Source: a virus (lineage: Duplodnaviria > Caudoviricetes). Taken from it: DNA of 50,465 bases. Shown piece by piece: positions 19,789 through 44,089 of the stretch. The stretch is taken from the IMG/VR virus record IMGVR_UViG_3300024429_000003, positions 1 through 50,465 of that record. One strand, given 5' to 3'. Both the position numbers and the translations under genes were made by a program. The notes under the pieces are model-generated. The model was given only the letters and a program-made list of their open reading frames with translations. It ran no database searches and was not told where the DNA came from. Numbering within the stretch: the first letter of the stretch is position 1; every line of letters begins with the position of its first letter.

Positions 19789-21681
19789 ATGAAACTAATA
19801 GCATTATCATTTATATTGTTATTTATCGTTATTTTTTGTCGTTCTATTTCTATATCCCAAGCATATCAAGAGAGTCTGGCTACCGAGAAGGCTATAATCA
19901 AGTTTGATCCTCTAACGTTGGTCGAGGAGGGATATCTCAGAATTAAGATCAAGGACATAAAACCGGGTGATGAGGAAAAAGGGACATTCATCCCGCTCAT
20001 TCCTAACCGTCCGCAGCGTCGATTTCTTCAGTTGTTCCGAAAACTTCAAAAAACCAATCAACCAATCCGTATAGTCATTCTCAAAGCTCGTCAATGGGGA
20101 GGCACTACCATTGTTGATGCTATTATGTATGCTCTCACAGCCTATCAATCCAATATCAACAGTATGATTATTGCTGATGAGAAAAAAGGAGCGACATATA
20201 TTCTTGGTATGGCACAGAATTTTCAGAAATCCGTCGAGGATGACTATCCCCATCTTGCGATATCAACAGTTCATAATAATAAGCTTGAATTGGCTTTTCG
20301 TGATACTCGATCGGTGATATTCATTGAATCTTCTGAGAATAAGGATGCCGGCCAGAAGTACACGCTTCATTATTTGCACTGCTCAGAGGTCTCTAAGTTC
20401 CATTATACCGATGAGCTCTTCGGCGGACTCCTACCCGCAGTCTCGAAAGCTCCGGGATCGATTATTGTGATGGAGTCCACAGCTAACGGAATCGGAGACT
20501 ATTTTCATTCATTATGTATGCAGGCCGAAGAGAATAGCGAACGGTTCAAGGATGGCGATTACTCAAGCTATAGGGGGGAGTGGTTGCTATTTTTTGTACC
20601 GTTCATGGAACATGAAGAATATAGCAAGCCATTTGAGAATCAGGAGCAGCGCCAATCGTTAATCAATTCCCTTGACGATGAAGAGCAGGCATTGTTAAAA
20701 CTGCAATATTCGACTATCGACGGTCCAAGATACACGTCTCTCAAGAACCTCAATTATCGTCGATGGGTATTAGAGAACGACTATAAGCGAGACATTGATA
20801 GGCTTCATGAGATGATGCCGACCACAGTCGATGAGGCATTTCTGGCTAGTGGACGTATGGCCTTTGATCCTAAACGCTGCAAAGAGATATACAATTATAC
20901 CCTCACCCAATCTTATAAGATCGGCATCCTTGAACCACAGAAAGACAATTCCAAGTTAATTAATTTCTTCGAGCAGCGAAACGGAGAATGGAAAATATGG
21001 GAGTTCCCACCCACTGAGCGCAACCCAATACATCCTGTTGACTATGTGCTGACTGTCGATCCACCGGGGCAGAAAGAGATTGAAGGGAATGTGGACGGCA
21101 AGAAGGGTGATTATGGCACAATAGGTATCTTTAGACGTAGACAGCCGGGAGAGCTGAAAGACTTCCCACAGGTAAGGCTTGAGCAGGTAGCTGAGTTCAG
21201 ATCACGTATGGCGCCTGATTTACTGGCTGATGAAGCCTATCATGGGGCCTTAGCTTATGGTATTAAGATGGTATTTCCAGAGGCTAATAGTTATGGATTG
21301 ACGACCATCGATCATCTGAAGCATAGGATAGGCATATATGTTCGTGAAACATACGACGAAAAGGCTAAGAAAGTTAGCAAAAAGCTCGGCTGGTATACCG
21401 GGCCAGGCATATCGGGCACAAAAAAGCTGATGATCACTGAGCTTGCCGCAGCTATAAGAGAACGAACAATTTTCGTAAGGTCTACGGTAATGGCAAACGA
21501 ACTTAAGACCTATATAGTAGCCGCAGACGGCACAACCAACGCTCAAGAAGGCTGTTTCGATGATACGGTTATTGAGGCTGCATTGGCAATACAGGCCGAT
21601 TTGAGGACACCGAGAAAGTCAGCATATAGCCAGGTGATACAGGTAAGTACAGAGAGAGGAGAGGATAAATGTGATTGTTAA
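19789..21681 (+). CDS. terL: Terminase large subunit with a hydrophobic N-terminal leader
   Basis: ILKARQWGGTT Walker A, LHCSE Walker B, ESTANG, nuclease VDP...EAN...CFDD. Confidence 0.93.
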   Translation: MKLIALSFILLFIVIFCRSISISQAYQESLATEKAIIKFDPLTLVEEGYLRIKIKDIKPGDEEKGTFIPLIPNRPQRRFLQLFRKLQKTNQPIRIVILKARQWGGTTIVDAIMYALTAYQSNINSMIIADEKKGATYILGMAQNFQKSVEDDYPHLAISTVHNNKLELAFRDTRSVIFIESSENKDAGQKYTLHYLHCSEVSKFHYTDELFGGLLPAVSKAPGSIIVMESTANGIGDYFHSLCMQAEENSERFKDGDYSSYRGEWLLFFVPFMEHEEYSKPFENQEQRQSLINSLDDEEQALLKLQYSTIDGPRYTSLKNLNYRRWVLENDYKRDIDRLHEMMPTTVDEAFLASGRMAFDPKRCKEIYNYTLTQSYKIGILEPQKDNSKLINFFEQRNGEWKIWEFPPTERNPIHPVDYVLTVDPPGQKEIEGNVDGKKGDYGTIGIFRRRQPGELKDFPQVRLEQVAEFRSRMAPDLLADEAYHGALAYGIKMVFPEANSYGLTTIDHLKHRIGIYVRETYDEKAKKVSKKLGWYTGPGISGTKKLMITELAAAIRERTIFVRSTVMANELKTYIVAADGTTNAQEGCFDDTVIEAALAIQADLRTPRKSAYSQVIQVSTERGEDKCDC

Positions 21682-21923
21682 AAGGATATTCGGATAAAAT
21701 GATCGAATGTAAGCAAGTGATAGACGTTATCTGTGATGTTTGTGGAGCAAAAAAGCAGATCTCTACTCATATTTGTTATGGTGACGATCAGCCAAAAATA
21801 AAAGAAATGATAAAGGCCGAAAATTGGCGGATTATAGAGTTTGATAATATTGCTACAGTGGTATGTTCAGAGCATAAAACAGAATATTATAGTGGTTATA
21901 TGATCGATGAGAAGAAACTATAA
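21675..21923 (+). CDS. Hypothetical Zn-binding protein
   Basis: CDVC...CSEH. Confidence 0.55.
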   Translation: MLKGYSDKMIECKQVIDVICDVCGAKKQISTHICYGDDQPKIKEMIKAENWRIIEFDNIATVVCSEHKTEYYSGYMIDEKKL

Positions 21924-24245
21924 ATGAAACGCCAAAAGCATTTAAACATAGAAAATCAAATCATCCTTAATCGCATCATCAACGATCAGGCAAAAGATGA
22001 GCAAGATTCTGGCACATACCGAGCCAATCGTTTGAAGTGGGACGAACAGAATGAAGCTTTAGAAAAAAAAACTTCAGAGAGAAAATTCAATACAAAAGGC
22101 ACTGAAACCAACTCATCAGGTGATATATTAATCAGTCGGGTATTATCTATTATTCAAAAACCTGTCTCTTTTATGCCGACTGAAAAGAACGACGCAGAGA
22201 AAGCTGAGAAGAATGAGGAATTCTATCGGTATTACGTCAATGATTACCTGGATGGATTCCATAATTTCATCGTTGAATATATCACTACCATTAAGGATTA
22301 TGGCTTTGGAATAGCTCAGATTAATTGGGAAAGGAGAGAAACTAAAGATATAGATATACGTCCATATCCTGTTGAAATAATGATTGACGAACAAGGCCAA
22401 GAACAGTTAGTCAGCCAGGAGACAGGCGAATATATAACACAAGAGACGATAGTTCGGGAAATATTCTCATCTGATAAATATCGGATTCAAGAGCCTACAG
22501 GCAAAATAAAAGAAATCGGTGAAGACCGTCTTGAGATAATCTATGAACAGCATATTGATAACCCTACCGATCCGAATAAGCAGTGGGACATAAAGGTATG
22601 CATAATAGATTTCAGTGTAGATGAGAGTAACGGCATATTAATTGCTAAGGTAGAAATGCCGCAAGTCGAGTATGATGGAGTAGTAATTGATAATCTCAAC
22701 TATGATCGTGTCTTCCATCCTGCCGACGCCAAAGACCTGCAACGCTGTGATCATGTGATAGTCGAGTTTGAGACAACCATATCTGAATTGATTGCCGGCA
22801 ATGAAAAAGGCGAATATCATATTTCTCCTGAAGATATGGACATCATTAAAAAGAATACCGATCATCAGAAAAAGTATACTTATTCTTCTGTAGAGCAGAA
22901 GGAAAAAACCGTTGAAGGCACTGAAGAGTCAATGCACCCTGAAAATTATAAGCCTGTAACCTGCTTAACCGGGTATTATTTGTTTGATGTGGAGGGTAAT
23001 GGTAAACTTGAACAGTGCATATTTACTATAGTTTCTAAATGTAGAGTAGTGATAGAGAAAAGGTATTTATCAGATAAGTACCGGCATGGTAAGCGTCCCA
23101 TAACTTGTGGTAAGTGGTTGCCAAGAAAATATCGGCTGTTCGGTATTGGCTTACCTGAGAAAATGCGTTCTCTTCAGTTATTGATAGACGATCTAAGGAA
23201 TCAGATATTAGAGACAGCCGCATATATGGCCAACCCACCCGGTTGGTATGACCCGGTAGGCGGCACAAACGAAAAAATTACTACAAAGATAGGGCAATAT
23301 CTTCCCTACCCTGGTGGTAGTGGTAATCCGCCTGTGACCATACCGATTAATGCGGATCTCAGGGCTCTGTTTGAGATGTTGAAACATTATATGGAGCAAT
23401 TTCAGAAACAATCTATGGTTTCTGAGCCACTGCAGGGGCAGCAAGGAGGGTTGAAGACGGCTACGGCATTCATGAAGGCATTAAGCGAGAATTATCAGAA
23501 TCTTTCTATTATTTTTAAGAATGTTCTTGATGCAATAAAGCAAGTTCATAAGATGATTTGGATGAATATAGTCGCTTATATGCCTGACGATATGGAATAT
23601 CGGACAAAGGGTAGCACAGAAGTGCAGACATTTTCCAGACGAGACATAATCAAGAATCCGGATATAAATATTGATGTGACTGCCGAAGAACTTTCTAAAG
23701 AGTATATGCAAACGGCGATCACGGAGGTATTTATGAACTTGGCCAATAATCCGTTAATGATCCAGGCCGGCATAGTGCAACCGAGGAATATGTATGAGAT
23801 GGCTAAAGACTATGCTGAGTCATTCAGTAAGGGAGCCAAAGATTATTTAACTGAACCTCCGCAACCTGAACCTCCGCACGATCCGGAAGAAGAGAATTAT
23901 CTTATGGTGCAAGGGGAAGAGGTTGTTCCTTCGCCTTTGGATGATGATGCACAGCATATACAGATACATCAGGTATTTCCGGTGAATAATGCGCAACAGA
24001 TACAACCTGAAGTCTTCGCTCAAGTAGTAATGAGAATACAGGCGCATAATAATTTGCACATACAAGCGCAGCAAGCTAAATTGCAGCAACAGTTAATGAT
24101 GGCACAGATGGCAGGGCAGCAAGGGGGCAAAGGAGCGGGACAAGGCGGGCAGTCTCAAAATCAGGGGGGGCCGGCCATGGTGTCACCGCAAGGTAATATG
24201 ACAGGCCTTAATATGCAGATGCCGGGGATGGGGGAGATAGGGTGA
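21924..24245 (+). CDS. Portal protein (P22-like)
   Basis: Follows TerL; 773 aa; DYGFGI, LFGIGL, KTATA, DDDAQHIQIH and Q-rich tail. Confidence 0.88.
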   Translation: MKRQKHLNIENQIILNRIINDQAKDEQDSGTYRANRLKWDEQNEALEKKTSERKFNTKGTETNSSGDILISRVLSIIQKPVSFMPTEKNDAEKAEKNEEFYRYYVNDYLDGFHNFIVEYITTIKDYGFGIAQINWERRETKDIDIRPYPVEIMIDEQGQEQLVSQETGEYITQETIVREIFSSDKYRIQEPTGKIKEIGEDRLEIIYEQHIDNPTDPNKQWDIKVCIIDFSVDESNGILIAKVEMPQVEYDGVVIDNLNYDRVFHPADAKDLQRCDHVIVEFETTISELIAGNEKGEYHISPEDMDIIKKNTDHQKKYTYSSVEQKEKTVEGTEESMHPENYKPVTCLTGYYLFDVEGNGKLEQCIFTIVSKCRVVIEKRYLSDKYRHGKRPITCGKWLPRKYRLFGIGLPEKMRSLQLLIDDLRNQILETAAYMANPPGWYDPVGGTNEKITTKIGQYLPYPGGSGNPPVTIPINADLRALFEMLKHYMEQFQKQSMVSEPLQGQQGGLKTATAFMKALSENYQNLSIIFKNVLDAIKQVHKMIWMNIVAYMPDDMEYRTKGSTEVQTFSRRDIIKNPDINIDVTAEELSKEYMQTAITEVFMNLANNPLMIQAGIVQPRNMYEMAKDYAESFSKGAKDYLTEPPQPEPPHDPEEENYLMVQGEEVVPSPLDDDAQHIQIHQVFPVNNAQQIQPEVFAQVVMRIQAHNNLHIQAQQAKLQQQLMMAQMAGQQGGKGAGQGGQSQNQGGPAMVSPQGNMTGLNMQMPGMGEIG

Positions 24246-24496
24246 ATATATTAATGGATATTGTAGTTGTAATTATATCTCTTATTGTTATTGTTGTGTC
24301 AATATTTCAGCGAAAATATAAACCTACAGTATTGATTAAATATAAAAACGGTAAAAAGGAAGTATTAAAAGGTCCTATATTAACAGAAAAAGAGATGTTT
24401 AAATGGATTGATAATATGGACGAGAAATTGTTTAAAAATAAAGAAGTTGCAAGTACGAGTTATGAATATGGGTATGTGAAGTGTGAGACATCATAA
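24242..24496 (+). CDS. Small protein with an N-terminal transmembrane helix
   Basis: IVVVIISLIVIVVSIF. Confidence 0.6.
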   Translation: MNILMDIVVVIISLIVIVVSIFQRKYKPTVLIKYKNGKKEVLKGPILTEKEMFKWIDNMDEKLFKNKEVASTSYEYGYVKCETS

Positions 24497-24666
24497 TGGT
24501 AGAATTAATCTGTGAAGGGTGTAAAGGTAATTTAGATATATGCACTAATTTAATGCTATATATAAGTAATCATCATTTGGTGATTAGGTGTCCTATGTGT
24601 AAATGGGAAACAAGAATTACGGTTAATGAGCATGGATTTGTTACGAAGGTGAAGGATTGTGAGTAA
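24496..24666 (+). CDS. Small Zn-ribbon protein (56 aa)
   Basis: Hand translation CEGC...CPMC; TAATG coupling. Confidence 0.6.
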   Translation: MVELICEGCKGNLDICTNLMLYISNHHLVIRCPMCKWETRITVNEHGFVTKVKDCE

Positions 24667-24898
24667 ATCGGTATTTTTTCTTGATGGTCCAGAAAAAAAT
24701 AAATTAATGTCTCTTCCCTATGAGAAAGGGAGTATATCATTTTATAAATATGAAGGACATGGAAAGAATTTTTTAAAAAATCCACCATTATTAAAAGAAC
24801 CACCTCAGCCCAAAGAGTATAAATATGTTATTTCTAAGATAGCTGAAGGATATCCAAGAGGGTATGGATTAGATTTATATGGAGCTAGATTATCATGA
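24659..24898 (+). CDS. Hypothetical protein
   Basis: Coupled ORF; FLDGP motif. Confidence 0.55.
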   Translation: MSKSVFFLDGPEKNKLMSLPYEKGSISFYKYEGHGKNFLKNPPLLKEPPQPKEYKYVISKIAEGYPRGYGLDLYGARLS

Positions 24899-25197
24899 CC
24901 AAACCCCAAAAACATAGCGCCTTACCATACAAGAAGCATAGCAAGCGCTGGAAGCGGAAGAGAGAGGCTTATTTGTGGGCACAAAGCAGGACAGAATATT
25001 TAACTTATGAGTTTATAGAAACTACGACTAAAAAAATAAGAAAGAAGGTTTTTCGTGATAAAGGTTTTCAAATATGCAGGAAAGTATTGGCCGTAGTAAA
25101 TTTTGCAAGACAGTTAGTAATGTATCAACAAGGGTCAAGAGTAAGGGAATTAGAGGTTTTTTGTAATTGGAAAGGTTTTCAGGGGATAATTGTATGA
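24895..25197 (+). CDS. Basic hypothetical protein
   Basis: ATGA overlap. Confidence 0.6.
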   Translation: MTKPQKHSALPYKKHSKRWKRKREAYLWAQSRTEYLTYEFIETTTKKIRKKVFRDKGFQICRKVLAVVNFARQLVMYQQGSRVRELEVFCNWKGFQGIIV

Positions 25198-25427
25198 AAG
25201 AAGGCTGGATATGTCCAAGATGTAAGACGATACATGCGCCGTATATAGATAAATGTGATTGTTCGGCTGATTTGCCTATAGTTGAGGAAATAAAAATAAA
25301 ACCAAGTGTGCCACCACACCTGCCTTATATATGGCCAAATGAAATGGAAAGATATAGGATAATGCCTACACCTACACCTAAACCATATTATCCATCAGGT
25401 ATCCATCAGGTATGGGACCTTTTTTGA
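25194..25427 (+). CDS. Small protein with GWICPRC...C-D-C motif
   Basis: MKEGWICPRCKTIHAP; ATGA overlap. Confidence 0.65.
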   Translation: MKEGWICPRCKTIHAPYIDKCDCSADLPIVEEIKIKPSVPPHLPYIWPNEMERYRIMPTPTPKPYYPSGIHQVWDLF

Positions 25428-25455
25428 TATACGGAACAGGAGGACAGTATTTTAC

Positions 25456-25881
25456 ATGATTCCCTTATACTACACAAAGCTGCACAAATATAAATATAAG
25501 CTGGCTAAGCCATTCAAGTATAATACCGGCATAAAAGGCCGTAGAGCTACAACAGAATATATATTGCTGTTCCCTGACGGTGAGTTGACCATAAAAATTG
25601 GTTATAGGTGGGATGGGCCTAGTGGCCCCACTCCCGATACAAAAACGTTCATGCGAGGAGCATTAATTCATGATGCGTTGTATCAGCTAATCAGAATGTA
25701 TATATTACCTGTATCGTTCAGGAAAATATCAGACAGATTATTAAGGAGGGTATGTATACAAGATGGCATGAATAAAATAAGAGCATGGTGGGTGTATAAC
25801 GCTGTGAGGTTGGCAGGTAAGGGATCTGCCGAACCCGGTACACAGAAACCGGATAAAATTTATTGTATAGGAAAGGAATGA
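25456..25881 (+). CDS. DUF1353-like protein
   Basis: GYRWDGPS...GALIHDALYQ...DRLL...WVYNAVR. Confidence 0.8.
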   Translation: MIPLYYTKLHKYKYKLAKPFKYNTGIKGRRATTEYILLFPDGELTIKIGYRWDGPSGPTPDTKTFMRGALIHDALYQLIRMYILPVSFRKISDRLLRRVCIQDGMNKIRAWWVYNAVRLAGKGSAEPGTQKPDKIYCIGKE

Positions 25882-25882
25882 A

Positions 25883-26155
25883 ATGCAAGATCAGTGTGCG
25901 CCACCAAAAAACTTGTATGAAATAGAAAGAGAGGTAGATCAATTAAAAGGGAATATTGAACAAATGGTCGGTATGAGTGAGACGTTACGAGACAAGCTAT
26001 CTGTTGTTTTGCGATCTGACCCACTAGAACCTTCTGCGGATAAACTTTCCACGAATACTTGTACCCCTCTGGGAGCTAAACTCAGGACTTTAGCAAATCA
26101 GGTAAATAATATAACGGATATACAAGCGGATATATTAAACAGATTAGAACTTTAA
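25883..26155 (+). CDS. Hypothetical coiled-coil protein
   Basis: AGGA RBS; ends with RLEL. Confidence 0.65.
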   Translation: MQDQCAPPKNLYEIEREVDQLKGNIEQMVGMSETLRDKLSVVLRSDPLEPSADKLSTNTCTPLGAKLRTLANQVNNITDIQADILNRLEL

Positions 26156-26192
26156 AAGAATAACCATCATATAAGAAAGGATAATAAAAACA

Positions 26193-26951
26193 ATGAATAG
26201 CAATCTAAAAGCGTTAACCAAAGGCTTTATCATCACATTAACCGTATTTTTTACAGTGTGTGTATTATTGGTTTGTATGACCTACGCTCAAACCAAGGGT
26301 GTCATAGACTTTATGGTGCAGAAAGCATCTGAAACGGGTATTGAAGATTTAAGTGTTGATGCTGACTTCCAGGTGCATCGGGAAAATATAAAGATAGAAT
26401 TGGATTTTGAATTAAATAAGGTGCAGACAGCCGAGAAGCTTGACAAACTGGACGTTTATACCGGGATTCAATACAATATTCTATTAAGTAAGCAGGTATA
26501 TACTTATGCGGCTATGAAATATAAAACCAATACCGGCTATGAAATAAGGAGTTCTACTTCCTTCGGAATGGGTGGCGGGTATTTTCCTGGGTTACAAGAT
26601 CCAAACCAAGAGGATTTTTTAGACTATAATATTCAGGCCGGACTTTTTTTAAATACAAAATATTTTGATGATAATACCTATGAGCGCAATACCATTCTGA
26701 ATTTATCCGGAGGGATTATTTACCCGATCAATGATATTTTTTCAGCATACGGTGAGGCGGAGATCGACTTTAATATGAGAAGGGCTTTTTATGACTATGA
26801 GAGTATAGTTGATGCAGGTGTAAAGGCGAAATTAACTGAGGGTGAGAAAGTATCCTCAAACCTAAAGATATGTAACGTATGGCGGCATAATCATTTAGCT
26901 GATATAGAAGACCAGAAGGTTTACGGGATAAAGATAGGGCTTGAGTTTTGA
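26193..26951 (+). CDS. Outer-membrane beta-barrel protein (DUF481-like) with signal peptide
   Basis: Hydrophobic signal ending TYA, alternating amphipathic strands, C-terminal GIKIGLEF beta-signal. Confidence 0.72.
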   Translation: MNSNLKALTKGFIITLTVFFTVCVLLVCMTYAQTKGVIDFMVQKASETGIEDLSVDADFQVHRENIKIELDFELNKVQTAEKLDKLDVYTGIQYNILLSKQVYTYAAMKYKTNTGYEIRSSTSFGMGGGYFPGLQDPNQEDFLDYNIQAGLFLNTKYFDDNTYERNTILNLSGGIIYPINDIFSAYGEAEIDFNMRRAFYDYESIVDAGVKAKLTEGEKVSSNLKICNVWRHNHLADIEDQKVYGIKIGLEF

Positions 26952-27133
26952 AATATACCAATACATCAGGTAAACCATTATCGGTGGAGGTCCTGGAAAA
27001 GGCCTATAACGGTCTTAAAGTAATGAGCAAGAATGGCGGGAAGTTACAATTAGAACCACAGGTAAAGATAAAACTGTCTGAGTATATTTTTCTTAATAAA
27101 GCGCAACAAAGATTTTATGAAAGTATGATATGA
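26948..27133 (+). CDS. Hypothetical protein
   Basis: Coupled ORF. Confidence 0.45.
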   Translation: MKYTNTSGKPLSVEVLEKAYNGLKVMSKNGGKLQLEPQVKIKLSEYIFLNKAQQRFYESMI

Positions 27134-27393
27134 AAGCTCATCTTCGGGCATGTTCGGCTTGTGGAAGCACAGAGTTTTACGACGGTAAGACTGAAATACA
27201 GTATTTAAAGATTAAGGGAAAGCTTGTAAATGGCTTTACTCATAAAATAAGTTACATGTTAAGGTGTGCTGTATGTGGGCGTCCTTGTATGGAAGATAAT
27301 GATTTTATCGAAAGTAAAAAAACAATGGAATTAACCGAAGATGAGACAAAAGCTATGAGAGACATTAACAGCCGGGCCAATGCGGAGTTCTAG
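27130..27393 (+). CDS. Zn-ribbon protein
   Basis: CSACG...CAVCG. Confidence 0.65.
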   Translation: MKAHLRACSACGSTEFYDGKTEIQYLKIKGKLVNGFTHKISYMLRCAVCGRPCMEDNDFIESKKTMELTEDETKAMRDINSRANAEF

Positions 27394-27506
27394 GCTTACA
27401 GCCAATGACCTGGCTTAATTTATATCCCGCGGAGGACTTATCTTATTAATATCGACAGTGAGAAAATGGATAGGTCTTCCAAGGGATCATTTTATTAGAG
27501 TGATAA

Positions 27507-27686
27507 ATGGCTTTTGAACTGACAGTAAAAGACAAAGATAAATCGTACAAGATTACAACGGGTGATATTCTCGATGTAAGAAATAATTGGGATTATTGGA
27601 TAGAAAAAAAAGATGGCGAAGGCCAGAGTATAAGTGAAAAGAACCTCTTTGATATTCTTGATAAATTTTTTGAGGAAAATATGTAA
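27507..27686 (+). CDS. Hypothetical protein (59 aa)
   Basis: Hand translation MAFELTVKDK... Confidence 0.55.
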   Translation: MAFELTVKDKDKSYKITTGDILDVRNNWDYWIEKKDGEGQSISEKNLFDILDKFFEENM

Positions 27687-28394: not shown

Positions 28395-28404
28395 GGATGA
28401 AGAA

Positions 28405-35423: not shown

Positions 35424-35426
35424 GAA

Positions 35427-35481: not shown

Positions 35482-35537
35482 GCTTAACAAAGTCTAAGAA
35501 AATGGTAAATGCCAGGCCTTTACCATAGGAGAAAATT

Positions 35538-36128: not shown

Positions 36129-36133
36129 ATAAA

Positions 36134-37528
36134 ATGTCTCTCGGTAGACCTACAAGAAATATGAATCTCGTCATACATGAAGATTCTATTATCGATCATG
36201 ATGCTCTGCTGAATTTTGAAGCGAATGAGCATATAGATTGGACAGATACGGATGAAGATTTGCTTACTATAGGCACACTAGGCGCAGGAGCAATTACGGG
36301 CACATCATTTATTATTGGTGCAAATACCCTAGATACGAATGAGTTTGCCTTCCTTGACGGGCAGGATCAATCGGTTTTAATAGCCTCATCTCCCACTTTT
36401 AACGATATTACAATTTCTACCCCGTCAAATATTTATGCACTGTCTCATGATAATTTTGCTGATTTTATAGCAGATGAGCATATTAATGTAAAAAATTCAT
36501 TTACACAGAATGATGCGCAATATATCGCCACAGATGAAATCAGGGCCAGGGACGGCGACGGATTAAAGTTGCATGACGATGACGGCAACGGGATATTTGT
36601 TAAGGATGGGGGCAACGTCGGTATAAACGAAATAGCCCCCGAAACCCTCCTTGAGATGTCATCTACGGCTCCTTATTTAACATTACATAATAGTACAGCA
36701 GAAGATACAGAAGGAGGACGAGAAGGTAAAATCATATTTAAGGGTGAGCAGTCGGGTGGCGAAGAAACAACTCTTGCAATAATACAGGCTTCACATGACG
36801 GTGTTGGTGATGATCAGAAAGGCGATTTGATATTCTATACTAATGACGGGACGGACGGTGATACTCCAACAGAAGCTGTTAGAATTGATAGCGCCGGGTT
36901 AGTTACTATTCTGAGAAATAATTTAAATGTAGGTGAAGATGATGTGGCTGACAGAATTTTGAATGTTTATAGCGACACAGCAGGTTCATATATCAGTATT
37001 CGTTCACAGGGCAATGCTGCCGGTTGGTATACTTATGGGACTAGTATGAATTTTGCTGCGGCTACAGCATCAAAAAATATAGTTTTTTATGCTGGCGGTC
37101 TTACTGCTGGTGATTTAGCTATGACAATAAATCATTTTGGCAATGTTGGGATAGGTGACTCAACACCTGCGGCACGGGTTGAAATACTTACTGATACATT
37201 TATACAATTGCAACTTTCTCATGATACTACAAATCATATTACTTTTGTCGTACAATCAGACGGCGATTTAACTATAGACTCAAATAAGGCGTCCTATGAC
37301 CTTGATTTCGGTGACGGGAACCTGATTACTACCGGCGCCCTTGGCGCGGGATTAGCCACAACGGCTAGTCATTATCCTTCGGCAGATGATACTTATTATC
37401 TGGGCAAAAATGATGATGATGCGCCTGCGGCCTGGAAGGGTCTTATTCTGAAAGATCAGACAGACGATAAATATTATCGGATAGAGCTTAATAATGGTGC
37501 AATAAGCATTGTAGATTTAACGGATTAA
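36134..37528 (+). CDS. Tail fibre protein
   Basis: HD.L.NF.A.EHI repeats, GNVGI repeats, G/T/D-rich. Confidence 0.75.
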   Translation: MSLGRPTRNMNLVIHEDSIIDHDALLNFEANEHIDWTDTDEDLLTIGTLGAGAITGTSFIIGANTLDTNEFAFLDGQDQSVLIASSPTFNDITISTPSNIYALSHDNFADFIADEHINVKNSFTQNDAQYIATDEIRARDGDGLKLHDDDGNGIFVKDGGNVGINEIAPETLLEMSSTAPYLTLHNSTAEDTEGGREGKIIFKGEQSGGEETTLAIIQASHDGVGDDQKGDLIFYTNDGTDGDTPTEAVRIDSAGLVTILRNNLNVGEDDVADRILNVYSDTAGSYISIRSQGNAAGWYTYGTSMNFAAATASKNIVFYAGGLTAGDLAMTINHFGNVGIGDSTPAARVEILTDTFIQLQLSHDTTNHITFVVQSDGDLTIDSNKASYDLDFGDGNLITTGALGAGLATTASHYPSADDTYYLGKNDDDAPAAWKGLILKDQTDDKYYRIELNNGAISIVDLTD

Positions 37529-37537
37529 GAAAAAATA

Positions 37538-37711
37538 ATGACATTTGAATTAACAGAGCAAGAACATAAAAATCTCAACGTATTTTTAAATTTGGTTGTG
37601 TTTCAAGGAACCAGAAGAGAGATAGTTCCAGAACTAAACGAACTTAATCGATTATTGCAGATATTTAATCCTGCACCTAAACCGAAGAAACCAATACCAG
37701 AGAAAATATAA
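37538..37711 (+). CDS. Small protein, possible fibre chaperone (57 aa)
   Basis: Hand translation MTFELTEQEHKNL...; follows the fibre gene. Confidence 0.5.
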   Translation: MTFELTEQEHKNLNVFLNLVVFQGTRREIVPELNELNRLLQIFNPAPKPKKPIPEKI

Positions 37712-37724
37712 AAGAAATAAAAAG

Positions 37725-39929
37725 ATGCCGACAAGACGGATATCGTTTAGTGTAGACGCTCCATTTCTTGGGCTTATGTATGAAAATAAGCCGGGATTCG
37801 ATTCTCGATATTTATCCAAAGCCTATAATATATTTTTGGATCGAAACGGATATGTGGAAAAACGTCCGGGCGTCTCTCTGGAAGATATGTCTTTAGCCGC
37901 TCTTGGAGATGTAGCTATAAACGGTATATTTGAGTATACCAAACAGGGCACAACGGGCAACCCTACGGTAAAAAAAATTATTCATACCGGCGGATACGCT
38001 TACAGTTTATCCGGATCTGATGTTTTGGCTAATAAATCGGCATTAAATTCAACGGCTATGGCTGTAGGAAATTATATTTCCCATGCAGTCTTAGCAGACA
38101 AATATTACGCTGCTGACGGAAATACTATACTTCAATATTATGATGGAACTACTTGGCAAGATATTGATACACCGCCCGAGAGCGGAATAATCGGTACTTT
38201 TGCTCCTGCCGTAATCGCTGTCCATGGATGGAGTTTATGGGCAGGAGGGCATCCCGGCAATCCGTCTTATTTATATAAATCAGTGCCTCATATTGGTTAT
38301 GATTTTAATACAAATCTTGCGGCCTATAGCGTAATAGATGGGTTTGCTCTTGTCGGAGCGTCACAAATTCCTGTCAGAACTGATGATGGGACTGTGATTA
38401 CCGAGATAATTGGTGATCATTATGAGCAGTTAATTATTGGAAAAGAAGATTCAATCCATAGGATAATCGGGGCAACTAAAGCCGATTTTGTCATGCCCCC
38501 TGCCGGGATTATTGATGGGATAGGCATGATTAGAGGTTCGGTAGTAAAGGCGAACAACGATTTATTTTTTGCCTCTACAAAAGGTATCCATCGTTTATCT
38601 ACCGTTGAGCAATATGGAGACAATAAAGAGTTTTTTATTTCTCATGCTATCCAGGATCTTTATGACGGGTTCGATAAAACTAATATGCTGAATTGGTGCA
38701 GGTCTGCTCATTGGCCGTCTAAGTCATGTATCGCTTGGGTCTTTCCCAGTAAGGATGCAGACACAAATGACACTATTATATTTTTCTTTTATGCGGTCCC
38801 CCCTAATGGCGGTTGGGCCATAATGACAGGGCATAATATTTCATCTATGGGAATTCTTACGCATAACGGAACCCCTTCATTGTATATGGGAGATCACTCA
38901 AGGCGGTTATTAAGAGTAGCGCCCGAGATGGGAAATGATTACGGTTCTGCTTTCACTATGGAAGCTGAATGGGTAATTAACCCAAAAGACAGAAAAATAT
39001 GGAAAGGATTTAGAGAAGCATTTATCAGTTTTTCACCTACAGGTGGCGGGATAGACGTAAAGACTAAAGTTGATAATAATGATTGGTCGGATACTCACAG
39101 CATAATTTCAAACGAGAAAACAGCCTCAGCTGACGAAATCAGAGCAGAAATCGCCAGATTCCCTGTTGATCGATCAGGACATATCTTAACGATCAACTGT
39201 CAAAATTCAGCTTTTGAGGAGGCAGTTGAAATATATTCCGTAGGCGGTGAATTTGTGTCGCAAGGGATCAGGGGGAGAATTGTTCCAACGGCTTCGGCCT
39301 ATATCTCTATCGATATTCTTTATATCAAGACTGCTGTGCATTGGGGCAAAGATGAAGATAACACCTGGCGGATGTTTAATAATCAACCCGACGATGCAGC
39401 TAGTGATTATCCGGATGATGTAGCTTTTGAGCGTAAAGATTTCAGTGTATGGACAGAGAAGTTTGCTATTGAATCAAATACGGCGGCTGTTTTAGGTTCA
39501 GCTACGGTAGATTTTAATGATGTATTTACAAAGAATGTCTATATCAATGACGGCGGGTGTATATACCTTTTTGCTACAGGCGGAGATGAGACGACTAATG
39601 GCTGCTATCGTATTACATGGTTTGAAGGTGTTGTATATTGGCATGAGTTAATAACTGGCACATGGACTTTGATATTTGATACTAAGCCGGTTACAGCAGA
39701 CCCTTCAGTGCCTGTAGAAATATCAGGGTATACCGAGCCATTAGACCCGACAATCCTTGAGGCTGACAATTTCTATTTGGATAAAGCCGGAGCGATTTAT
39801 CTTTATCCTTCAGACAATGAGCAGACAACGGATAATTGCTTAAGAATTACCCGCAGCGTTCAGGATTTAGCAATAAAAAAGAGATCTCTTGGCGGATGGT
39901 TAGAAACTTTTGCCTTTACCAGAAAATAA
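37725..39929 (+). CDS. Tail nozzle/stabilisation protein (P22 gp10/T7 gp12-like beta-propeller) with C-terminal extension
   Basis: F.GL...AYNI...EKRPG start, LIIGKEDSI, LFFASTKGI, FISHAIQ, K.FRE. Confidence 0.8.
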   Translation: MPTRRISFSVDAPFLGLMYENKPGFDSRYLSKAYNIFLDRNGYVEKRPGVSLEDMSLAALGDVAINGIFEYTKQGTTGNPTVKKIIHTGGYAYSLSGSDVLANKSALNSTAMAVGNYISHAVLADKYYAADGNTILQYYDGTTWQDIDTPPESGIIGTFAPAVIAVHGWSLWAGGHPGNPSYLYKSVPHIGYDFNTNLAAYSVIDGFALVGASQIPVRTDDGTVITEIIGDHYEQLIIGKEDSIHRIIGATKADFVMPPAGIIDGIGMIRGSVVKANNDLFFASTKGIHRLSTVEQYGDNKEFFISHAIQDLYDGFDKTNMLNWCRSAHWPSKSCIAWVFPSKDADTNDTIIFFFYAVPPNGGWAIMTGHNISSMGILTHNGTPSLYMGDHSRRLLRVAPEMGNDYGSAFTMEAEWVINPKDRKIWKGFREAFISFSPTGGGIDVKTKVDNNDWSDTHSIISNEKTASADEIRAEIARFPVDRSGHILTINCQNSAFEEAVEIYSVGGEFVSQGIRGRIVPTASAYISIDILYIKTAVHWGKDEDNTWRMFNNQPDDAASDYPDDVAFERKDFSVWTEKFAIESNTAAVLGSATVDFNDVFTKNVYINDGGCIYLFATGGDETTNGCYRITWFEGVVYWHELITGTWTLIFDTKPVTADPSVPVEISGYTEPLDPTILEADNFYLDKAGAIYLYPSDNEQTTDNCLRITRSVQDLAIKKRSLGGWLETFAFTRK

Positions 39930-40002
39930 AAAAATAAAAAACCTGGTATTTACGGTAGAAACCAGGTATTTACCATTTTTTTAAAAAAAGGACTAAGTAA
40001 TG

Positions 40003-40056
40003 AAAAATCAATAGTTTATTTATGAATATAGGGTTACAGATTTTTTAATATGTAAC
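40003..40056. repeat. About 55-bp element, copy 2: IHF consensus plus GTTACA-N12-TGTAAC
   Basis: Near-identical to 35427..35481. Confidence 0.85.
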
Positions 40057-40088
40057 AGGTAAATAGTTGAAAAATAAAAGGAGACCTT

Positions 40089-42575
40089 ATGAAAAAAATA
40101 ATGTGTATTTTGTGTATTTTGTTCTTTGCTTCAACAGCGTACGCCGGTTATCGATCAACAGACGGCTCCTACCATGTAGGGGATACGGTTTCAATCAGCC
40201 AGTATTCGGATAATCTGAGTACGGCGCTTGCTGCTATCGGCTCGGACGATAAGGAATTAATAATCAATGAAACAATTGCCTTAACGGCGCATTGTGTAGT
40301 CCCTGCCACCTGTAAAATTCGTTTCACCAAAGGCGGAATAATTACCCTCGGAGATTATAATTTAACAATCAATTCCCCTTTCAGGTGTGACCGGCAATAT
40401 ATTTTTAATGCTACAGGTACAGGAGTTGTTGCTTTTGGCGCAGACTCAGTAAAAGAAATTTTGCCCGAATGGTTTGGAACAGCCGACGACGATGTAGTAT
40501 TGCAAGATGTTATTGATGCTCTTGGGGCTAGTAGTATTCCTCTTTATTTTTCTCAAGGCACATGGGACATAGATGCGTCTTTGACTTTTGTAGCGACCAC
40601 TACAATGAAATTTGATAAAGGCGCTATTTTGGATGTGAATGATGGCATAACTGTAGCAATAGGCGGATATGTTGATGCAGGGCCGTATAAAATATTTGAT
40701 GTAGACGCTAATTCAACAGTATCGCTTGCCGACACAACGATAGATGTTTATTCGACATGGTTTGATGAGAATTTAACTGCGGCCGTAGGTTCTATCGCTT
40801 CTTACGATCAGATTTTGCATATCACTGACTCGACACTTAATTCCTCTATTGCAATTGCTAAAGATATAAAAATTGTTCTTGAGTGTGATGCTACCAGCAC
40901 ATTATCAGCAAGTGCGATTTTTGATGTTGACGGAGTTTTAAGTGAGTCTACTTACGCACTTTCGGCAGACGAGGACGAGGGATCAGAAAGTGTAGTGGTT
41001 GCAAGCGCTACAGGGCTTGCAGTTGGAGATTATATTTACTTCCGTCAGCCGCAGACAACGGCATATGTTGATTCTCATTATAGAATTGTCAGTATCGCTG
41101 ATACTACATTAACTCTTGACAGAGATTTAGATATTGACGCAGATTCGAATTGTATTATCTATGAGCATACGCCATATAGATTTAATTTTGACGGAAATGG
41201 GAAAACAGTCTCAATGTCTGGTGATAGACCACAGTTTATTAACATGGTTCATAGCAGAGACTCTAAAATATCAGATACTCATTTATACTTTTCGGGAAAT
41301 GAACCAACTACATCCAGTTCCGTTATAATCCCTGTTTTTGTTGATAAATGTTACGGAATTACTATTGAAAATATGACATTTAAAAATCTTGACGGAGGTG
41401 AAAATTTTTCCTGCTTGGGAGTATATCGGTCTTCGGGCATAGACGTTGATAATATTTTTATCCCGGGCACAAAAGGAAAGGCTGGAGGATTAGTATTTTT
41501 ATATAATACTCAAGGGAACGTGCATCATTGTAGGCTTTTCAAGGTACAGACCTCGGGGACGGGAGTTATATTTTCTTATCTTTGTCATTATTTTGACATT
41601 AATAATAATATAATTCATTCATCAACTTATCATGCGGCCGATACATCAGGATCAGGAATACAAATAACCGCTTGTGTTAATGTTAATTGCAATAATAATA
41701 CAGTTGCTAATTGTAGAGGTATTGCCGAAATATATGTTTCAGGATCTTCTGACAGAGTAAATATTACAGGTAATATCATTTCTCATTCCGGGGTTGGAAC
41801 AAACGATTATAAATCAGCTATCCAGCTTCGATCAGGAACGAATATAAAATGTAATAGTAACTTGATTGAAACTGATGGGGCCACCGGGATACATCTTAGA
41901 GGAATTGATGGATATTCTTTGCAAAATAATACGGTAATTTGTACTGGAATTCACGGATTACTATTAACAAAAGCCGGTTCAGATGCCGATGAAGCAACCT
42001 ATTATCCCTCAAACGGTATTGTTTCAGGGAATGATATAAAATTAACTAATGCTGTTGCTACCTGCACTGGTCTTAATTTGGGCAGTAAGGCATATGAAAA
42101 TAAAATATGTGATAATAAAATTGAGTATACTAGCACTAGTGTTGCTGCCGGTAACAAATGGGGAATGCTGTTAAATACGGCAGATACAAAAACGGCTGTT
42201 CATGATAATTATATTTATACTGCTATTACTGACGCCAATTTTCCTATTATCGGGATTCAGTTATCTTCTTTTGCCGGGGCTTTTTGGAATAATATGGTTG
42301 AGGGAGACAATGATACACCGTATACATTTACTACCCCAACGGGGTACGGGCACGATAACTGGTCTGTTGGTTCAAATCTTGGTTATGGATATGTAGCCGC
42401 AGTAATAAATACAAAAACCTTTGCCGGCACGTGCGCAAGGAAAATGGGGACTACAGCGGCCAGGCCGACACTGGGGGCCGCCGATGCAGGGTTTATTTAC
42501 TGGGATACAAATTTAACTGAAGCCATTGTATGGAACGGATCAGGGTGGGTGGCTTGTGACGGGACAGGGTTATAG
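40089..42575 (+). CDS. Tailspike/right-handed beta-helix protein with a Sec-type signal peptide
   Basis: MKKIMCILCILFFASTAYA; PEWFG...DDD; many I.GN/NN repeats; C-terminal GTTAARP...YWDT...WNGSGWV. Confidence 0.78.
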   Translation: MKKIMCILCILFFASTAYAGYRSTDGSYHVGDTVSISQYSDNLSTALAAIGSDDKELIINETIALTAHCVVPATCKIRFTKGGIITLGDYNLTINSPFRCDRQYIFNATGTGVVAFGADSVKEILPEWFGTADDDVVLQDVIDALGASSIPLYFSQGTWDIDASLTFVATTTMKFDKGAILDVNDGITVAIGGYVDAGPYKIFDVDANSTVSLADTTIDVYSTWFDENLTAAVGSIASYDQILHITDSTLNSSIAIAKDIKIVLECDATSTLSASAIFDVDGVLSESTYALSADEDEGSESVVVASATGLAVGDYIYFRQPQTTAYVDSHYRIVSIADTTLTLDRDLDIDADSNCIIYEHTPYRFNFDGNGKTVSMSGDRPQFINMVHSRDSKISDTHLYFSGNEPTTSSSVIIPVFVDKCYGITIENMTFKNLDGGENFSCLGVYRSSGIDVDNIFIPGTKGKAGGLVFLYNTQGNVHHCRLFKVQTSGTGVIFSYLCHYFDINNNIIHSSTYHAADTSGSGIQITACVNVNCNNNTVANCRGIAEIYVSGSSDRVNITGNIISHSGVGTNDYKSAIQLRSGTNIKCNSNLIETDGATGIHLRGIDGYSLQNNTVICTGIHGLLLTKAGSDADEATYYPSNGIVSGNDIKLTNAVATCTGLNLGSKAYENKICDNKIEYTSTSVAAGNKWGMLLNTADTKTAVHDNYIYTAITDANFPIIGIQLSSFAGAFWNNMVEGDNDTPYTFTTPTGYGHDNWSVGSNLGYGYVAAVINTKTFAGTCARKMGTTAARPTLGAADAGFIYWDTNLTEAIVWNGSGWVACDGTGL

Positions 42576-43001
42576 CTTTTTTAATTTTTTAACAAAAATA
42601 TATAAAAAAATTAATATACCAAGCACATAAAAATGACGGGTACGAATAGTTTCACCAAAAAGAGACAATTTTCCATCATGAAAATAATGGCAAATAACCC
42701 TATTCGTAAAAGGAATGTCCCAAATCCAAAAGCTTAGGGGAAGAAATGAAAAGAAGAAGGCCATAATAATTTTTTTTATCTGTGGGTGTGTAGGGGACAG
42801 TCGTAAGATTATTATTGCAATTATAATAGCCCACGGCAAAGAGGGGTCATATGATAACCATTTAATGAGAGAAATTACTGTATAATCCTTACCAAATGGG
42901 TTCAACATGCAAGTTGGATAATAGAAAATAGCGTGGTGTAAAATTGCGGTCAACGGTATGATGAGGAGGGGTAAAAATTTTATCATAGATTTTATTTTCA
43001 T
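42570..43001 (-). CDS. Polytopic membrane protein on the antisense strand (moron-like)
   Basis: About four hydrophobic segments; own promoter; AT-rich. Confidence 0.7.
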   Translation of the reverse strand: MKIKSMIKFLPLLIIPLTAILHHAIFYYPTCMLNPFGKDYTVISLIKWLSYDPSLPWAIIIAIIILRLSPTHPQIKKIIMAFFFSFLPLSFWIWDIPFTNRVICHYFHDGKLSLFGETIRTRHFYVLGILIFLYIFVKKLKKL

Positions 43002-43007
43002 AAAAAA

Positions 43008-43036
43008 AATATAGACAATAAAAAATTTGTTGTCAA
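43008..43036 (-). promoter_or_regulatory. Sigma70 promoter of the membrane-protein gene
   Basis: TTGACA-17 nt-TATATT with TGn; predicted +1 near ATG 43001. Confidence 0.65.
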
Positions 43037-43159
43037 GGTAAATTAAATATAAAAAATAACCTGAGGAGATGAAACTGCTAAATTTACTGATTACACCATA
43101 TGCCATTCAGAGAAGCTTGCAAGGTGTGAGGCGTTATAAAATAAGAAGGTAAAATAGAT

Positions 43160-44089
43160 ATGATAACATTAAGTTTGTTTCGTTTTTTCTTTTGTCCGGT
43201 ATTATGTTTTTTACTGTATTTTTGTTGGGTTCAATGGATTCCCGCGGCTATTAGTGCTGTCGGTGCTATTGCGGGGGCGGTTAAAGGCAGCCAAAAAGGC
43301 TCGGGGAGCACACCTGCGACAGTACCAACGTCAGGAACGTCGTGGCAGACATCAAGACAAGCTTTGCCGAGTGCTACACCAATGCAGGCATATGGCGAAA
43401 ATGCTCTCATGCAGATGATGCAAGGATATAACCCACAAGGGCAATTAGGGTTAGCCGGACAGTCTACGGGGGCCATGAGTAATCTTTTCGGAGGGGCGGC
43501 CCCACAGGTATCCCCACAGCAGCAAGCACTCATTCAGGGTCAGACACAGAATTTTATGCGAGGATTACAGCAGCAATTAGAGCAGTACGCCAAAGGCGCA
43601 AAGTCAGGCAATCAGCAGTATTGGCAAGGTAGAGGATTACCAGGATCAAGCATGGAGGTAGGTGGCCAATCTAATATTGACGCTCAAATGATGCAGCAAT
43701 TAGCGCAAGGGTATACTCAGGCCAAGGGGCAGGAGTTACAGAATCTTTTACAATATCCCATGCAGAATCTTCAGTATATGCAAGGTATGGGAAGCTTGCA
43801 GCAGCAATATAATCAGCCGTTCTTAGAGATGATTAATCAACTTGGTATGTCAAGACTGCAAGGACCGAGAGATGTTACACAGACAGGAGCTACTACCGGC
43901 ACGGCAGTAGCGCAGCAAGGGGCGTCTACAGGCGGCGGGATAATGGATATTCTTGGAGGTGCTAAAGGCGGACTAGAGATGGGCCAAGGGCTTAATACTC
44001 TTATTAGCCTTTTTGGTAATAAAGGTAGTGGTGGGTCAGGGAATACAACACCGTCCGGATGGGTTACGGATGACACTGTACGCGCATAA
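43160..44089 (+). CDS. DNA ejection/pilot protein 1 with a hydrophobic leader
   Basis: WIPAAISAVGAIAG, G/Q-rich, GRGLPGSS motif, C-terminal glycine-zipper. Confidence 0.72.
   Translation: MITLSLFRFFFCPVLCFLLYFCWVQWIPAAISAVGAIAGAVKGSQKGSGSTPATVPTSGTSWQTSRQALPSATPMQAYGENALMQMMQGYNPQGQLGLAGQSTGAMSNLFGGAAPQVSPQQQALIQGQTQNFMRGLQQQLEQYAKGAKSGNQQYWQGRGLPGSSMEVGGQSNIDAQMMQQLAQGYTQAKGQELQNLLQYPMQNLQYMQGMGSLQQQYNQPFLEMINQLGMSRLQGPRDVTQTGATTGTAVAQQGASTGGGIMDILGGAKGGLEMGQGLNTLISLFGNKGSGGSGNTTPSGWVTDDTVRA

Follow-up and report, generated by a model that had tools for sequence, protein, structure and literature searches.

In the 50,465-nucleotide stretch of viral DNA analysed here (the window), the large terminase (TerL) and a cement/decoration-like head protein of an uncultured short-tailed phage begin with short hydrophobic leaders. 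To judge from their relatives, both leaders are inherited within the clade with their hydrophobicity maintained. An inherited leader of this sort is an unusual feature in an enzyme that packages DNA and in a protein that cements the capsid; both kinds of protein are considered soluble and cytoplasmic. A third leader is found on a putative ejection protein. We prefer, with confidence somewhat short of even, to read the three as translated leaders that are independent of one another and either signal-peptide-like or membrane-interacting, in one podophage lineage, and not as copies of one tag.

The phage and its relatives

The phage is a member of an SU10-like temperate podophage lineage. Its portal matches Pfam SU10_portal (E 2.8e-36) and its adaptor SU10_adaptor (E 9.7e-11). 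After the tail genes comes a run of genes for ejection proteins, as with gp20-24 in SU10 (Kuravirus), whose gp10, a candidate for a minor capsid protein, is Ig-like and was not observed on the capsid (PMC9509320). The phage differs from SU10 in also encoding an integrase, and the available part of the SU10 report mentions neither leaders nor N-terminal processing (PMC9509320).

A Logan contig from the same source run is identical to the window over positions 24000-43999, spanning two of the three leaders, but it is no independent sample because it was built from the same reads. Megablast of positions 19200-44100 against public phage records gave no match, and neither did IMG/VR scans with single-protein queries (the cement protein, the ejection protein and an 828-aa protein described below). 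An alignment-based IMG/VR scan recovered one leader-bearing locus, L090, while metagenome and genome scans gave leaderless relatives only (L083, L084 and L086). The cement family was sought in the records behind L086 and L002 and was not found.

Start sites

The original prediction had placed hydrophobic N-termini of 17-22 residues on three genes with plausible starts, and the open reading frames at 19789, 31869 and 43160 were confirmed, together with their ATGs and Shine-Dalgarno (SD) sequences, all on the + strand. The SD-like AAGGA of TerL (19780-19784) lies 4 nt upstream of its ATG, the AGGAGGT of the cement gene (31855-31861) 7 nt upstream and inside the end of gene 31330-31866, and the SD-like AAGG of the ejection gene (43146-43149) 10 nt upstream of the ATG at 43160. 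It had been allowed that the true starts might lie downstream. However, no in-frame candidate start within or just past the leaders has an SD in any of the three genes, and none has a canonical start downstream of the leader but before the conserved residues. The next canonical in-frame start of TerL is TTG 19918 (codon 44), past the DPL motif at residues 40-42, and that of the cement gene is TTG 31944 (codon 26), past the conserved N21 and P25. Since an SD is present only at the leader ATGs and the downstream starts lie beyond conserved residues, translation must begin at the leader ATGs. The frames also stay open through the leaders in five TerL and six cement lineages.

The large terminase

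The product of 19789-21681 (+ strand, 630 aa) is a large terminase by sequence, fold and the adjoining small terminase (TerS) gene. It matches phrog_2 (E 1.5e-19), and its AF2 model (mean pLDDT 91.7) gave a Foldseek match to T4 gp17 (E 4.1e-20) and was also paired with the HK97, Sf6, D6E and P74-26 terminases. The TerS gene (19290-19787, + strand; phrog_51 terminase small subunit, E 2.6e-19) ends with a TAA (19785-19787) 1 nt before the TerL ATG; in the leaderless L086 the two genes overlap as ATGA. The open TerL frame reaches back to 19693, and a TerS-TerL frameshift fusion was considered and rejected as not needed, no evidence of it having been found.

The leader comprises residues 1-17, MKLIALSFILLFIVIFC (19789-19839, + strand), followed by RSISISQA and then YQ. 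Among 120 homologues compared, it was present in five of the ten nearest (P0012, P0013, P0014, P0015 and P0021) and in none of the 110 more distant ones; a sixth match, in P0110, lies internally, at residue 27, and is not N-terminal. Five TerL relatives, at 53-55% identity, have no leader (P0016-P0020). The leader sequences diverge widely between lineages whose bodies are 49-72% identical, and the leader Cys has no common position among four of the relatives. In a maximum-likelihood tree, the leader label needs three changes; given the poorly supported backbone, the TerL leader may still have a single origin. Leader-bearing TerLs have N-termini no longer than those of P0017, P0019 and P0020. 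In the AF2 model, residues 2-39 form one continuous helix (block pLDDT 76-89), and the charge bias of the leader is too weak for topology prediction.

The cement-like protein

The cement/decoration-like gene (31869-32426, + strand, 185 aa) immediately precedes the major capsid gene (32445-33356; Pfam Mu-like_gpT, E 6.5e-15), and the same position just before the capsid gene is found in five loci (the window, L001, L083, L084 and L090). The family has 1790 representatives at E<=0.001. The protein matches phrog_37556, for which no function is assigned, and gave no Pfam match at E<=0.01. Its nearest named Atlas clusters (scores 0.85-0.87), with Phage_cement families in 15-33% of their members, serve as a lead only. 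A PDB profile search returned only designed beta-propeller 'Pizza' proteins (E at least 1.5e-3), which were judged to be noise.

The leader, residues 1-19 MINVFMLIIGIFIFLICLC (31869-31925, + strand), is followed by ANGDTPLGFRP, so that the family-conserved ANGD starts at residue 20. According to the original prediction, decoration homologues begin M-A-N-x-D and the leader takes the place of the initiator Met. Both points agree with the family: 127 of 150 representatives start with M[ASTG][NDEAST], and 131 of the 150 have no N-terminal extension relative to the profile. Only 2/150 have such a hydrophobic N-terminus. From this rarity among homologues, as from that seen for TerL, leader hydrophobicity is more than chance.

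Cement leaders recur in four close relatives and one distant one (P0005, P0007, P0008, P0009 and P0139). The residue at the junction is C in P0005 and P0139, and A in P0007, P0008 and P0009. Conservation is higher in the leader than in the mature domain within one sub-clade, with 18/19 identical leader positions against 71% of the mature part for P0007-P0009 and 15/18 against 71% for P0007-P0008; for P0005-P0007 the values are 11/17 and 70%. Leader divergence is fast between the window and P0005 (7/16 identical, mature part 86%), and the closest relative but one, P0006 (69% identity), has no leader. The L090 gene repeats the SD-ATG-leader layout of the window. Between these two, 45 mature codons are identical, 63 differ synonymously and 58 non-synonymously, so that synonymous sites have been heavily turned over, and the leader is still open and hydrophobic in both (19 and 20 codons).

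Thus, for TerL and the cement protein the original prediction of leader-bearing proteins stands, because the upstream starts hold and relatives have conserved the leaders. For each of the two genes there are close orthologues with and without a leader, which provides a clean natural experiment. The leaders are also dispensable, since P0006 and the five TerL relatives do without them. In a full-text literature search, the listings and abstract openings included nothing on a terminase with a signal peptide or transmembrane helix leader, nor on a decoration protein with a signal peptide leader.

The putative ejection protein

The third gene (43160-44089, + strand) encodes a Gly/Gln-rich protein of 309 aa and is assigned as a putative ejection gene by position only, as the first of three genes (43160, 44106 and 45299) at the podovirus internal/ejection protein position. 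Its leader, residues 1-22 MITLSLFRFFFCPVLCFLLYFC (43160-43225, + strand), is a hydrophobic N-terminal stretch joined to a Gly/Ala-rich hydrophobic N-terminus that is also present in some relatives. None of the four relatives found has the leader, so here the expected conservation did not extend beyond the window phage. A nearby Atlas cluster (score 0.94), 13% of whose members carry Pfam P22_gp7, is a lead only: neither the protein nor its four relatives gave a Pfam match, and P22_gp7 was found in 0/5 of these alignment members at E<=1.

Properties of the leader peptides

The Kyte-Doolittle 15-residue maxima of the TerL, cement and ejection leaders are 3.29, 3.37 and 2.31, within the range (2.29-3.63) of the membrane and secreted proteins that the phage itself encodes. 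Uncharged runs span 13-21 residues in TerL leaders and 10-17 in cement leaders, and the cores of 10-15 residues in P0005, P0139, P0013 and P0021 are short for a stable transmembrane anchor. A K or R precedes the core in 5/5 TerL leaders and in 4/6 cement leaders (the window and P0139 being the exceptions), while in the ejection leader R8 sits within the hydrophobic stretch. By eye, small residues at -3/-1 are found as SQA in the TerLs of the window and P0013 and as GLA in three cement relatives, and LLA, GLC and CLC fit as well. P0015 (RSA, then Pro), P0021 (no site), P0139 (Y at -3) and the ejection leader (none obvious) do not fit. As a positive control, the signal peptide of the DUF481 protein (26193-26288, + strand) was used, encoded by an outer-membrane-type gene at 26193-26951 (Pfam DUF481, E 9.8e-9, a match that clears the curated cutoff). 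The Cys-containing style of the leaders is also seen in the phage's own secreted proteins.

The (F/L)C ending from which a common tag had been proposed is real in the three window leaders, but the junction Cys is not conserved in relatives. Beyond an F/I/L/C-rich composition the three leaders have no motif in common, which speaks against a single shared tag. By eye, the three leader DNAs show no similarity either, and a shared DNA element or mobile insertion was rejected. A lipobox has the form [LVI][ASTVI][GAS]C at the cleavage site. As had been predicted, no such motif precedes the junction Cys, which follows I-F in TerL, C-L in the cement protein and Y-F in the ejection protein, and a lipoprotein reading was discarded.

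T in the leader codons is highest at position 2 (0.62-0.78), like in the phage's genuine transmembrane segments. In the L090 leader T makes up 0.26 of third positions compared with 0.35 genome-wide, with GCA, GGA, ACG and GCT among the codons used. Since L090 repeats the layout without third-position T enrichment, the codons place the constraint on the peptide and not on U-richness or RNA structure.

Possible role of the leaders

In the reading that we prefer, the leaders would have arisen separately in each gene with a similar layout: a short n-region, often with K/R, a core of 10-19 uncharged residues and then small residues. They would carry the nascent protein to the inner membrane. The cement leader would most likely then be removed, regenerating the canonical Ala-Asn N-terminus, because it is fused exactly at the position of the initiator Met and its last residue is small (C or A). 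The TerL leader is more likely to be retained as a membrane- or partner-binding helix, because in the model it makes up the leading half of a long helix at the N-terminus; the ATPase/nuclease body would stay cytoplasmic. A true export signal would be self-defeating on TerL, since the enzyme requires cytoplasmic ATP and DNA. The ejection leader would merely extend an already membrane-active, Gly/Ala-rich N-terminus as a phage-specific addition.

A stronger proposal, which we regard as unlikely, is that the clade put signal-anchor-type leaders on TerL and the cement protein, and in this phage also on the tailspike-like and ejection proteins, so that late assembly and DNA packaging are tethered to the inner membrane and released by leader cleavage. 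To our knowledge, membrane-organised head completion has not been described for tailed phages outside the portal-initiation step of T4.

If the leaders are truly heritable, sequence-constrained and signal-peptide-like, some tailed phages would package DNA and complete their capsids at the membrane, or would process these proteins, or else strongly hydrophobic N-termini would be tolerated on phage proteins at little cost. TerL is a standard marker for viral taxonomy and prediction pipelines, and filters based on SignalP or TMHMM would misclassify such proteins.

Alternative explanations

Near-neutral displacement of the start codon is possible, although on the unlikely side. Here, after loss of the original ATG, an SD-ATG further upstream would have been taken into use, and a former AT/T-rich spacer or variable N-terminal segment would now be translated without function. 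The peptide would be hydrophobic only because T-rich DNA encodes F, L, I and C, and it would be tolerated or cut by cytosolic peptidases. Such pseudo-leaders can be found in the same phage: the negative control, a T-rich non-coding intrinsic terminator with an 18-bp stem and T-run (30347-30396, + strand), gives a spurious hydrophobic, transmembrane-like 'leader' before the real ATG at 30422 when read from TTG 30368. In leaderless relatives the cement gene is preceded by a spacer, which measures 29 nt in L083 and 111 nt in L084, where it includes a hairpin and T-run, and the upstream stop lies only 2 nt (window) or 8 nt (L090) before the leader ATG. The patchiness and dispensability of the leaders and the restriction of the ejection leader to this phage would also fit. 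So would P22 gp7, whose N-terminal 20-aa leader, in the part of the report available, is cleaved by the host oligopeptidase OpdA, is absent from the mature virion protein and can be deleted with about 60% of the burst retained (PMC8402733). However, functionless translation does not readily explain a cement sub-clade whose leader has changed less than the mature sequence next to it, or frames kept open and hydrophobic across lineages despite the synonymous turnover. The third positions of L090 are not T-rich, the TerL leader adds no length and TerS-TerL coupling stays tight, and proteins that are abundant, or are nucleases, would probably pay a price for carrying a strongly hydrophobic tag.

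It is quite unlikely that the leaders are protein-protein elements, such as helices buried in the motor ring, a TerS contact, a capsid groove arm or an oligomerisation segment. In the AF2 model the TerL helix does run into the conserved helix before DPL, the leaderless TerLs P0016 and P0018 are moderately hydrophobic before DPL (KD11 1.9-2.4), and the cement motif LF-x-x-VFGF-x-x-FGL is conserved in sequence, which is unusual for signal peptides. Against a specific contact, TerL leaders vary widely on bodies that are 49-72% identical, and the otherwise fixed M-A-N start of the cement family suggests that a free Ala-Asn end functions. The cement AF2 model is too poor (pLDDT 57.8) to inform on packing.

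An RNA or DNA element that is in frame by chance (a U-rich translational enhancer, attenuator hairpin or promoter) is highly improbable. The leaders are the T-richest tracts on the late + strand, and the window cement leader region folds better than shuffles (z -2.26; 5/200 fold as well), but the three other regions folded gave z-scores of -1.26, -0.28 and -0.11, the codon-position pattern is that of ordinary transmembrane coding, and promoter-like matches are at shuffle level (65 against 61.4 expected; 36 against 35.8). Equally hard to credit is an annotation artefact with untranslated leaders and true starts downstream: the window ATA at 19852 aligns with Met20 of P0013, P0013, P0014 and P0015 carry internal Met residues inside the hydrophobic stretch or right behind it, and a public gene call for the cement protein (P0004, 180 aa) begins at Met6, but the start-site results, the frames open across lineages and the L090 layout all oppose it, and the SD at 31855-31861 matches that of the capsid gene in quality.

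Comparison with known systems

The signal-peptide-like reading has a parallel in Sec/SPase I signal peptides and SRP anchors, with the n-h-c layout and, by eye, small -3/-1 residues in most leaders, which resemble those of the phage's secreted DUF481 protein and 828-aa beta-helix protein. They differ in cargo, which is cytoplasmic (TerL) or placed on cytoplasmically assembled capsids, in some cores of only 10-13 residues, and in the Pro after the candidate cleavage site of P0015.

P22 gp7 is similar as a podovirus ejection protein with a leader of about 20 aa, and it is an apt precedent for a dispensable, host-cleaved leader (PMC8402733). It is no evidence for the gating of assembly that had been proposed by analogy. 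The window ejection leader differs in being strongly hydrophobic and phage-specific, on a protein without a Pfam P22_gp7 match. We know of no such leader on the terminase or decoration protein of P22.

In staphylococcal phage 80alpha, short N-terminal leaders on the capsid and scaffolding proteins are reportedly removed by the host protease Prp. Both cases have in common that more than one morphogenetic protein of a phage carries a short leader. The 80alpha leaders mimic the extension of ribosomal protein L27 and are not transmembrane-like, and Prp, a cysteine protease, acts in processing of this type on an L27-like motif. In contrast, the three window genes have no common motif, and a Pfam scan of the 60 translated window ORFs found no Prp-like or other protease family.

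SAR domains, in which an N-terminal hydrophobic segment holds a phage endolysin at the membrane until release, are similar as a concept. They are Gly/Ala/Ser-rich, weakly hydrophobic and export the catalytic domain to the periplasm, whereas the window leaders are F/I/L/C-rich and their cargo should remain cytoplasmic.

Apart from the three genes of the original prediction, a fourth signal-peptide case was observed in the 828-aa tailspike-like protein (40089-42575), which begins with a textbook signal peptide, MKKIMCILCILFFASTAYA (40089-40145, + strand). The protein matches Pfam Beta_helix (E 1.2e-6) and the virion structural protein family phrog_20787, and its C-terminus resembles the tailspikes of crAss-like Bacteroides phages (E 2e-4).

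Start sites of the leader genes

The hydrophobic N-termini of TerL (19789, residues 1–17), the cement-like protein (31869, residues 1–19) and the putative ejection protein (43160, residues 1–22) were found in the sequence exactly as the original prediction described them. When every in-frame ATG, GTG, TTG, CTG and ATH candidate of the three genes was scanned for true starts downstream of the leaders, a Shine–Dalgarno (SD) match was found at the leader ATGs only: AAGGA with a 4 nt spacer for TerL, AGGAGGT with 7 nt for the cement gene (equal in quality to the SDs of the capsid gene and gene 44106) and AAGG with 10 nt for the ejection gene. The next canonical start in TerL is TTG 19918, codon 44, past the conserved DPL motif (40–42), and in the cement gene TTG 31944, codon 26, past the invariant N21 and P25. 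Within the first 35 codons of the ejection gene, the sole canonical alternative is TTG at codon 6. Since an SD is present only at the leader ATGs and no suitable later start exists, the leaders lie within the only frames yielding the conserved proteins. These start sites show that the leaders are translated. The TerL ATG follows the TerS stop by 1 nt, the usual coupled arrangement; in the leaderless related locus L086, TerS and TerL are coupled by an ATGA overlap. A contig from the same sequencing run, built by a different assembler, is identical to the window over 24000–43999.

T-rich DNA can mimic a leader. An ORF from TTG 30368 reads as a TM-like peptide; this pseudo-leader is the translation of a strong intrinsic terminator (30347–30396, +, 18-bp stem and T-run) directly upstream of the scaffold-like gene, whose real SD-ATG is at 30422. 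Genuine hydrophobic N-termini are found in the DUF481 protein (26193), two small TM proteins (24242 and 49874) and the beta-helix protein (40089), and the codon signature of the three leaders matches these genuine cases, with a T peak at position 2 (0.62–0.78) and an unremarkable position 3.

Conservation of the leaders in relatives

The TerL and cement extensions are present in relatives. The cement family comprised 1790 representatives at E ≤ 0.001; among the best 150 of these, 131 had no extension, 12 had a short MPYLR-type extension and only 2 a hydrophobic one (P0139, whose 10-residue leader has Cys as its last residue, and the cluster of the window itself), while 127 start with M[ASTG][NDEAST]. 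Near the window, a leader of 17–19 residues, joined exactly at the family's initiator-Met position, occurs in the homologues P0005 (82%), P0007, P0008 and P0009 (~60%); P0006 (69%), P0010, P0011, the loci L083 and L084 and pelagiphage HTVC027P gp58 have none. Between P0007 and P0009, the leader is identical at 18/19 residues and the mature part at 71%, differing from the third mature residue onward. The corresponding values are 15/18 vs 71% for P0007 and P0008, and 11/17 vs 70% for P0005 and P0007. The divergent leader is the window's own (7/16 vs 86% mature, against P0005). Judged by these comparisons, the cement leader is not drifting freely. In leaderless L084, a hairpin followed by a T-run (1330–1395) lies directly upstream of the cement-gene SD; it may be an attenuator that separates the cement and capsid genes, which are highly expressed, from those on the scaffold side.

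The DNA was compared with L090, the syntenic IMG/VR contig encoding P0007. Its layout is that of the window: the upstream gene ends in TMNRR, containing AGGAG, followed by ATG, 19 leader codons and ANGD. At third codon positions its leader shows no U enrichment (T 0.26), and codons for Gly, Ala, Ser and Thr occur in it. Of 108 mature residues conserved between the window and L090, 63 are encoded by different codons, so the two lineages are old, yet leader frame, length and hydrophobicity have been kept. The L090 leader also contains a 15-nt tandem direct repeat (2079–2108; two units, each GTATTCGGATT plus 4 nt) that encodes VFGF-T-VFGL, which suggests that the leader grew through internal duplication.

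A TM-like N-terminus was found in 5 of 120 TerL homologues, all among the ten nearest. In overall identity, the leader-bearing proteins beside the window's are P0013 (72%), P0014 (63%), P0015 (55%) and P0021 (49%); P0016–P0020 (53–55%) and L086 (49% in its best-matching segment) are leaderless. The leader adds no length, the region N-terminal to DPL being 39 residues in the window vs 21–41 in leaderless TerLs. The backbone of the maximum-likelihood tree is without resolution among the ten nearest; the best tree has three leader-label changes, and its well-supported branches are compatible with a single leader origin. In the confident AF2 model of TerL (120 sequences, pLDDT 91.7), residues 2–39 form one helix, and the terminase fold was confirmed by Foldseek.

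Conservation was not borne out for the ejection protein, since the F/C-rich leader is absent in all four relatives (46–67% identity over the alignment). Two of them, P0133 and P0135, have long N-terminal Gly/Ala-rich uncharged stretches aligned to window residues ~23–45, so the window leader lengthens an N-terminus that is hydrophobic in any case, and it is specific to this phage. The "ejection" label itself derives from gene position alone; a Pfam search of the protein gave no match, and the Atlas pointed weakly to clusters resembling P22 gp7 (13% share). A lone minus-strand ORF (42570–43106) interrupts the late plus-strand block here, and the divergent intergenic region beside it abuts the ejection-gene leader. 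An 11/12 sigma-70-like promoter match (TTGACA-17-TATATT, 43008–43036) lies inside the annotated 5′ end of this ORF, which probably begins at a Met downstream of the annotated start.

Nature of the leaders

The observation of the leaders is thus real and non-trivial, and the sequence comparisons show that two of them are inherited and that the constraint on these two acts on the peptide. The idea of one shared tag ending in (F/L)C was wrong in detail: the three leaders share composition only, no further common motif was found, and the junction Cys is not conserved. They contain no lipobox, and no protease families were detected among 60 scanned window ORFs. We infer that the leaders are signal-peptide-like, membrane-interacting segments that may plausibly have a functional role. 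Because the cement leader is fused precisely where the family's Met stands and has a small residue ahead of Ala-Asn, its simplest fate would be removal. Terminase works in the cytoplasm, so the TerL leader would more plausibly stay on as a hydrophobic helix than direct export. Leaders on podovirus ejection proteins have a precedent in P22 gp7, whose leader is described in PMC8402733 as cleaved by the host and largely dispensable. Of the cases seen here, that of TerL is the most unusual.

The main rival explanation, loss of the start codon and then near-neutral capture of upstream sequence, fits the patchy leader distribution and the pseudo-leader read from the terminator, but fits poorly with the 18/19 leader conservation and with the codon data. 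RNA structure did not account for the leaders (folding z of −2.26, −1.26, −0.28 and −0.11). Promoter-like matches were no more than at shuffle level.

Genomic context and other signal-peptide proteins

The record is a complete virus of 50,465 bp with direct terminal repeats and ~39% G+C; identical 60-nt strings at 36–95 and 50374–50433 fit this repeat (about 127 nt by offset). Early genes encode an integrase, SNF2- and UvrD-type helicases and a prim-pol. The late block, on the plus strand, comprises TerS (19290–19787), TerL (19789–21681), an SU10-type portal (21924–24245), a GroES homologue (28405–28668), the scaffold-like gene (30422–31333), a 178-aa gene, the cement-like gene (31869–32426), a Mu-gpT-like major capsid gene (32445–33356) and an SU10-type adaptor (34554–35423), followed by tail genes, the beta-helix gene and three plus-strand genes in the podovirus ejection-protein position (43160, 44106 and 45299). 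A minor contig of the source run has a 4-nt insertion (ATCC) behind 37707 (depth 8.5 of 51.9), and low-depth fragments of 80–95% likeness map to ~35.5–39.9 kb, which together point to related strains with variable tail genes.

The 828-aa right-handed beta-helix protein (40089–42575, +) has a textbook signal peptide (residues 1–19, ending AYA), and its C-terminal part resembles both a PHROG annotated as "virion structural protein" and the tailspikes found in crAss-like Bacteroides phages. Since an A/T-rich region lies upstream of its gene and the minus-strand ORF downstream, the protein may be either a secreted, tailspike-derived moron or a fourth virion protein with a leader. Among the small genes between portal and scaffold, 26193–26951 (+) encodes a DUF481 protein (outer-membrane beta-barrel type) with a signal peptide, suggesting that the host is diderm and that the gene serves lysogenic conversion. 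The 70-aa protein of 28182–28394 (+), adjoining the GroES gene, scores above the curated cutoff for the Acb2/Tad1 hairpin domain of Pfam (E 1.5e-20); it is a candidate sponge for cyclic nucleotides that would counter defences of the CBASS/Thoeris type.
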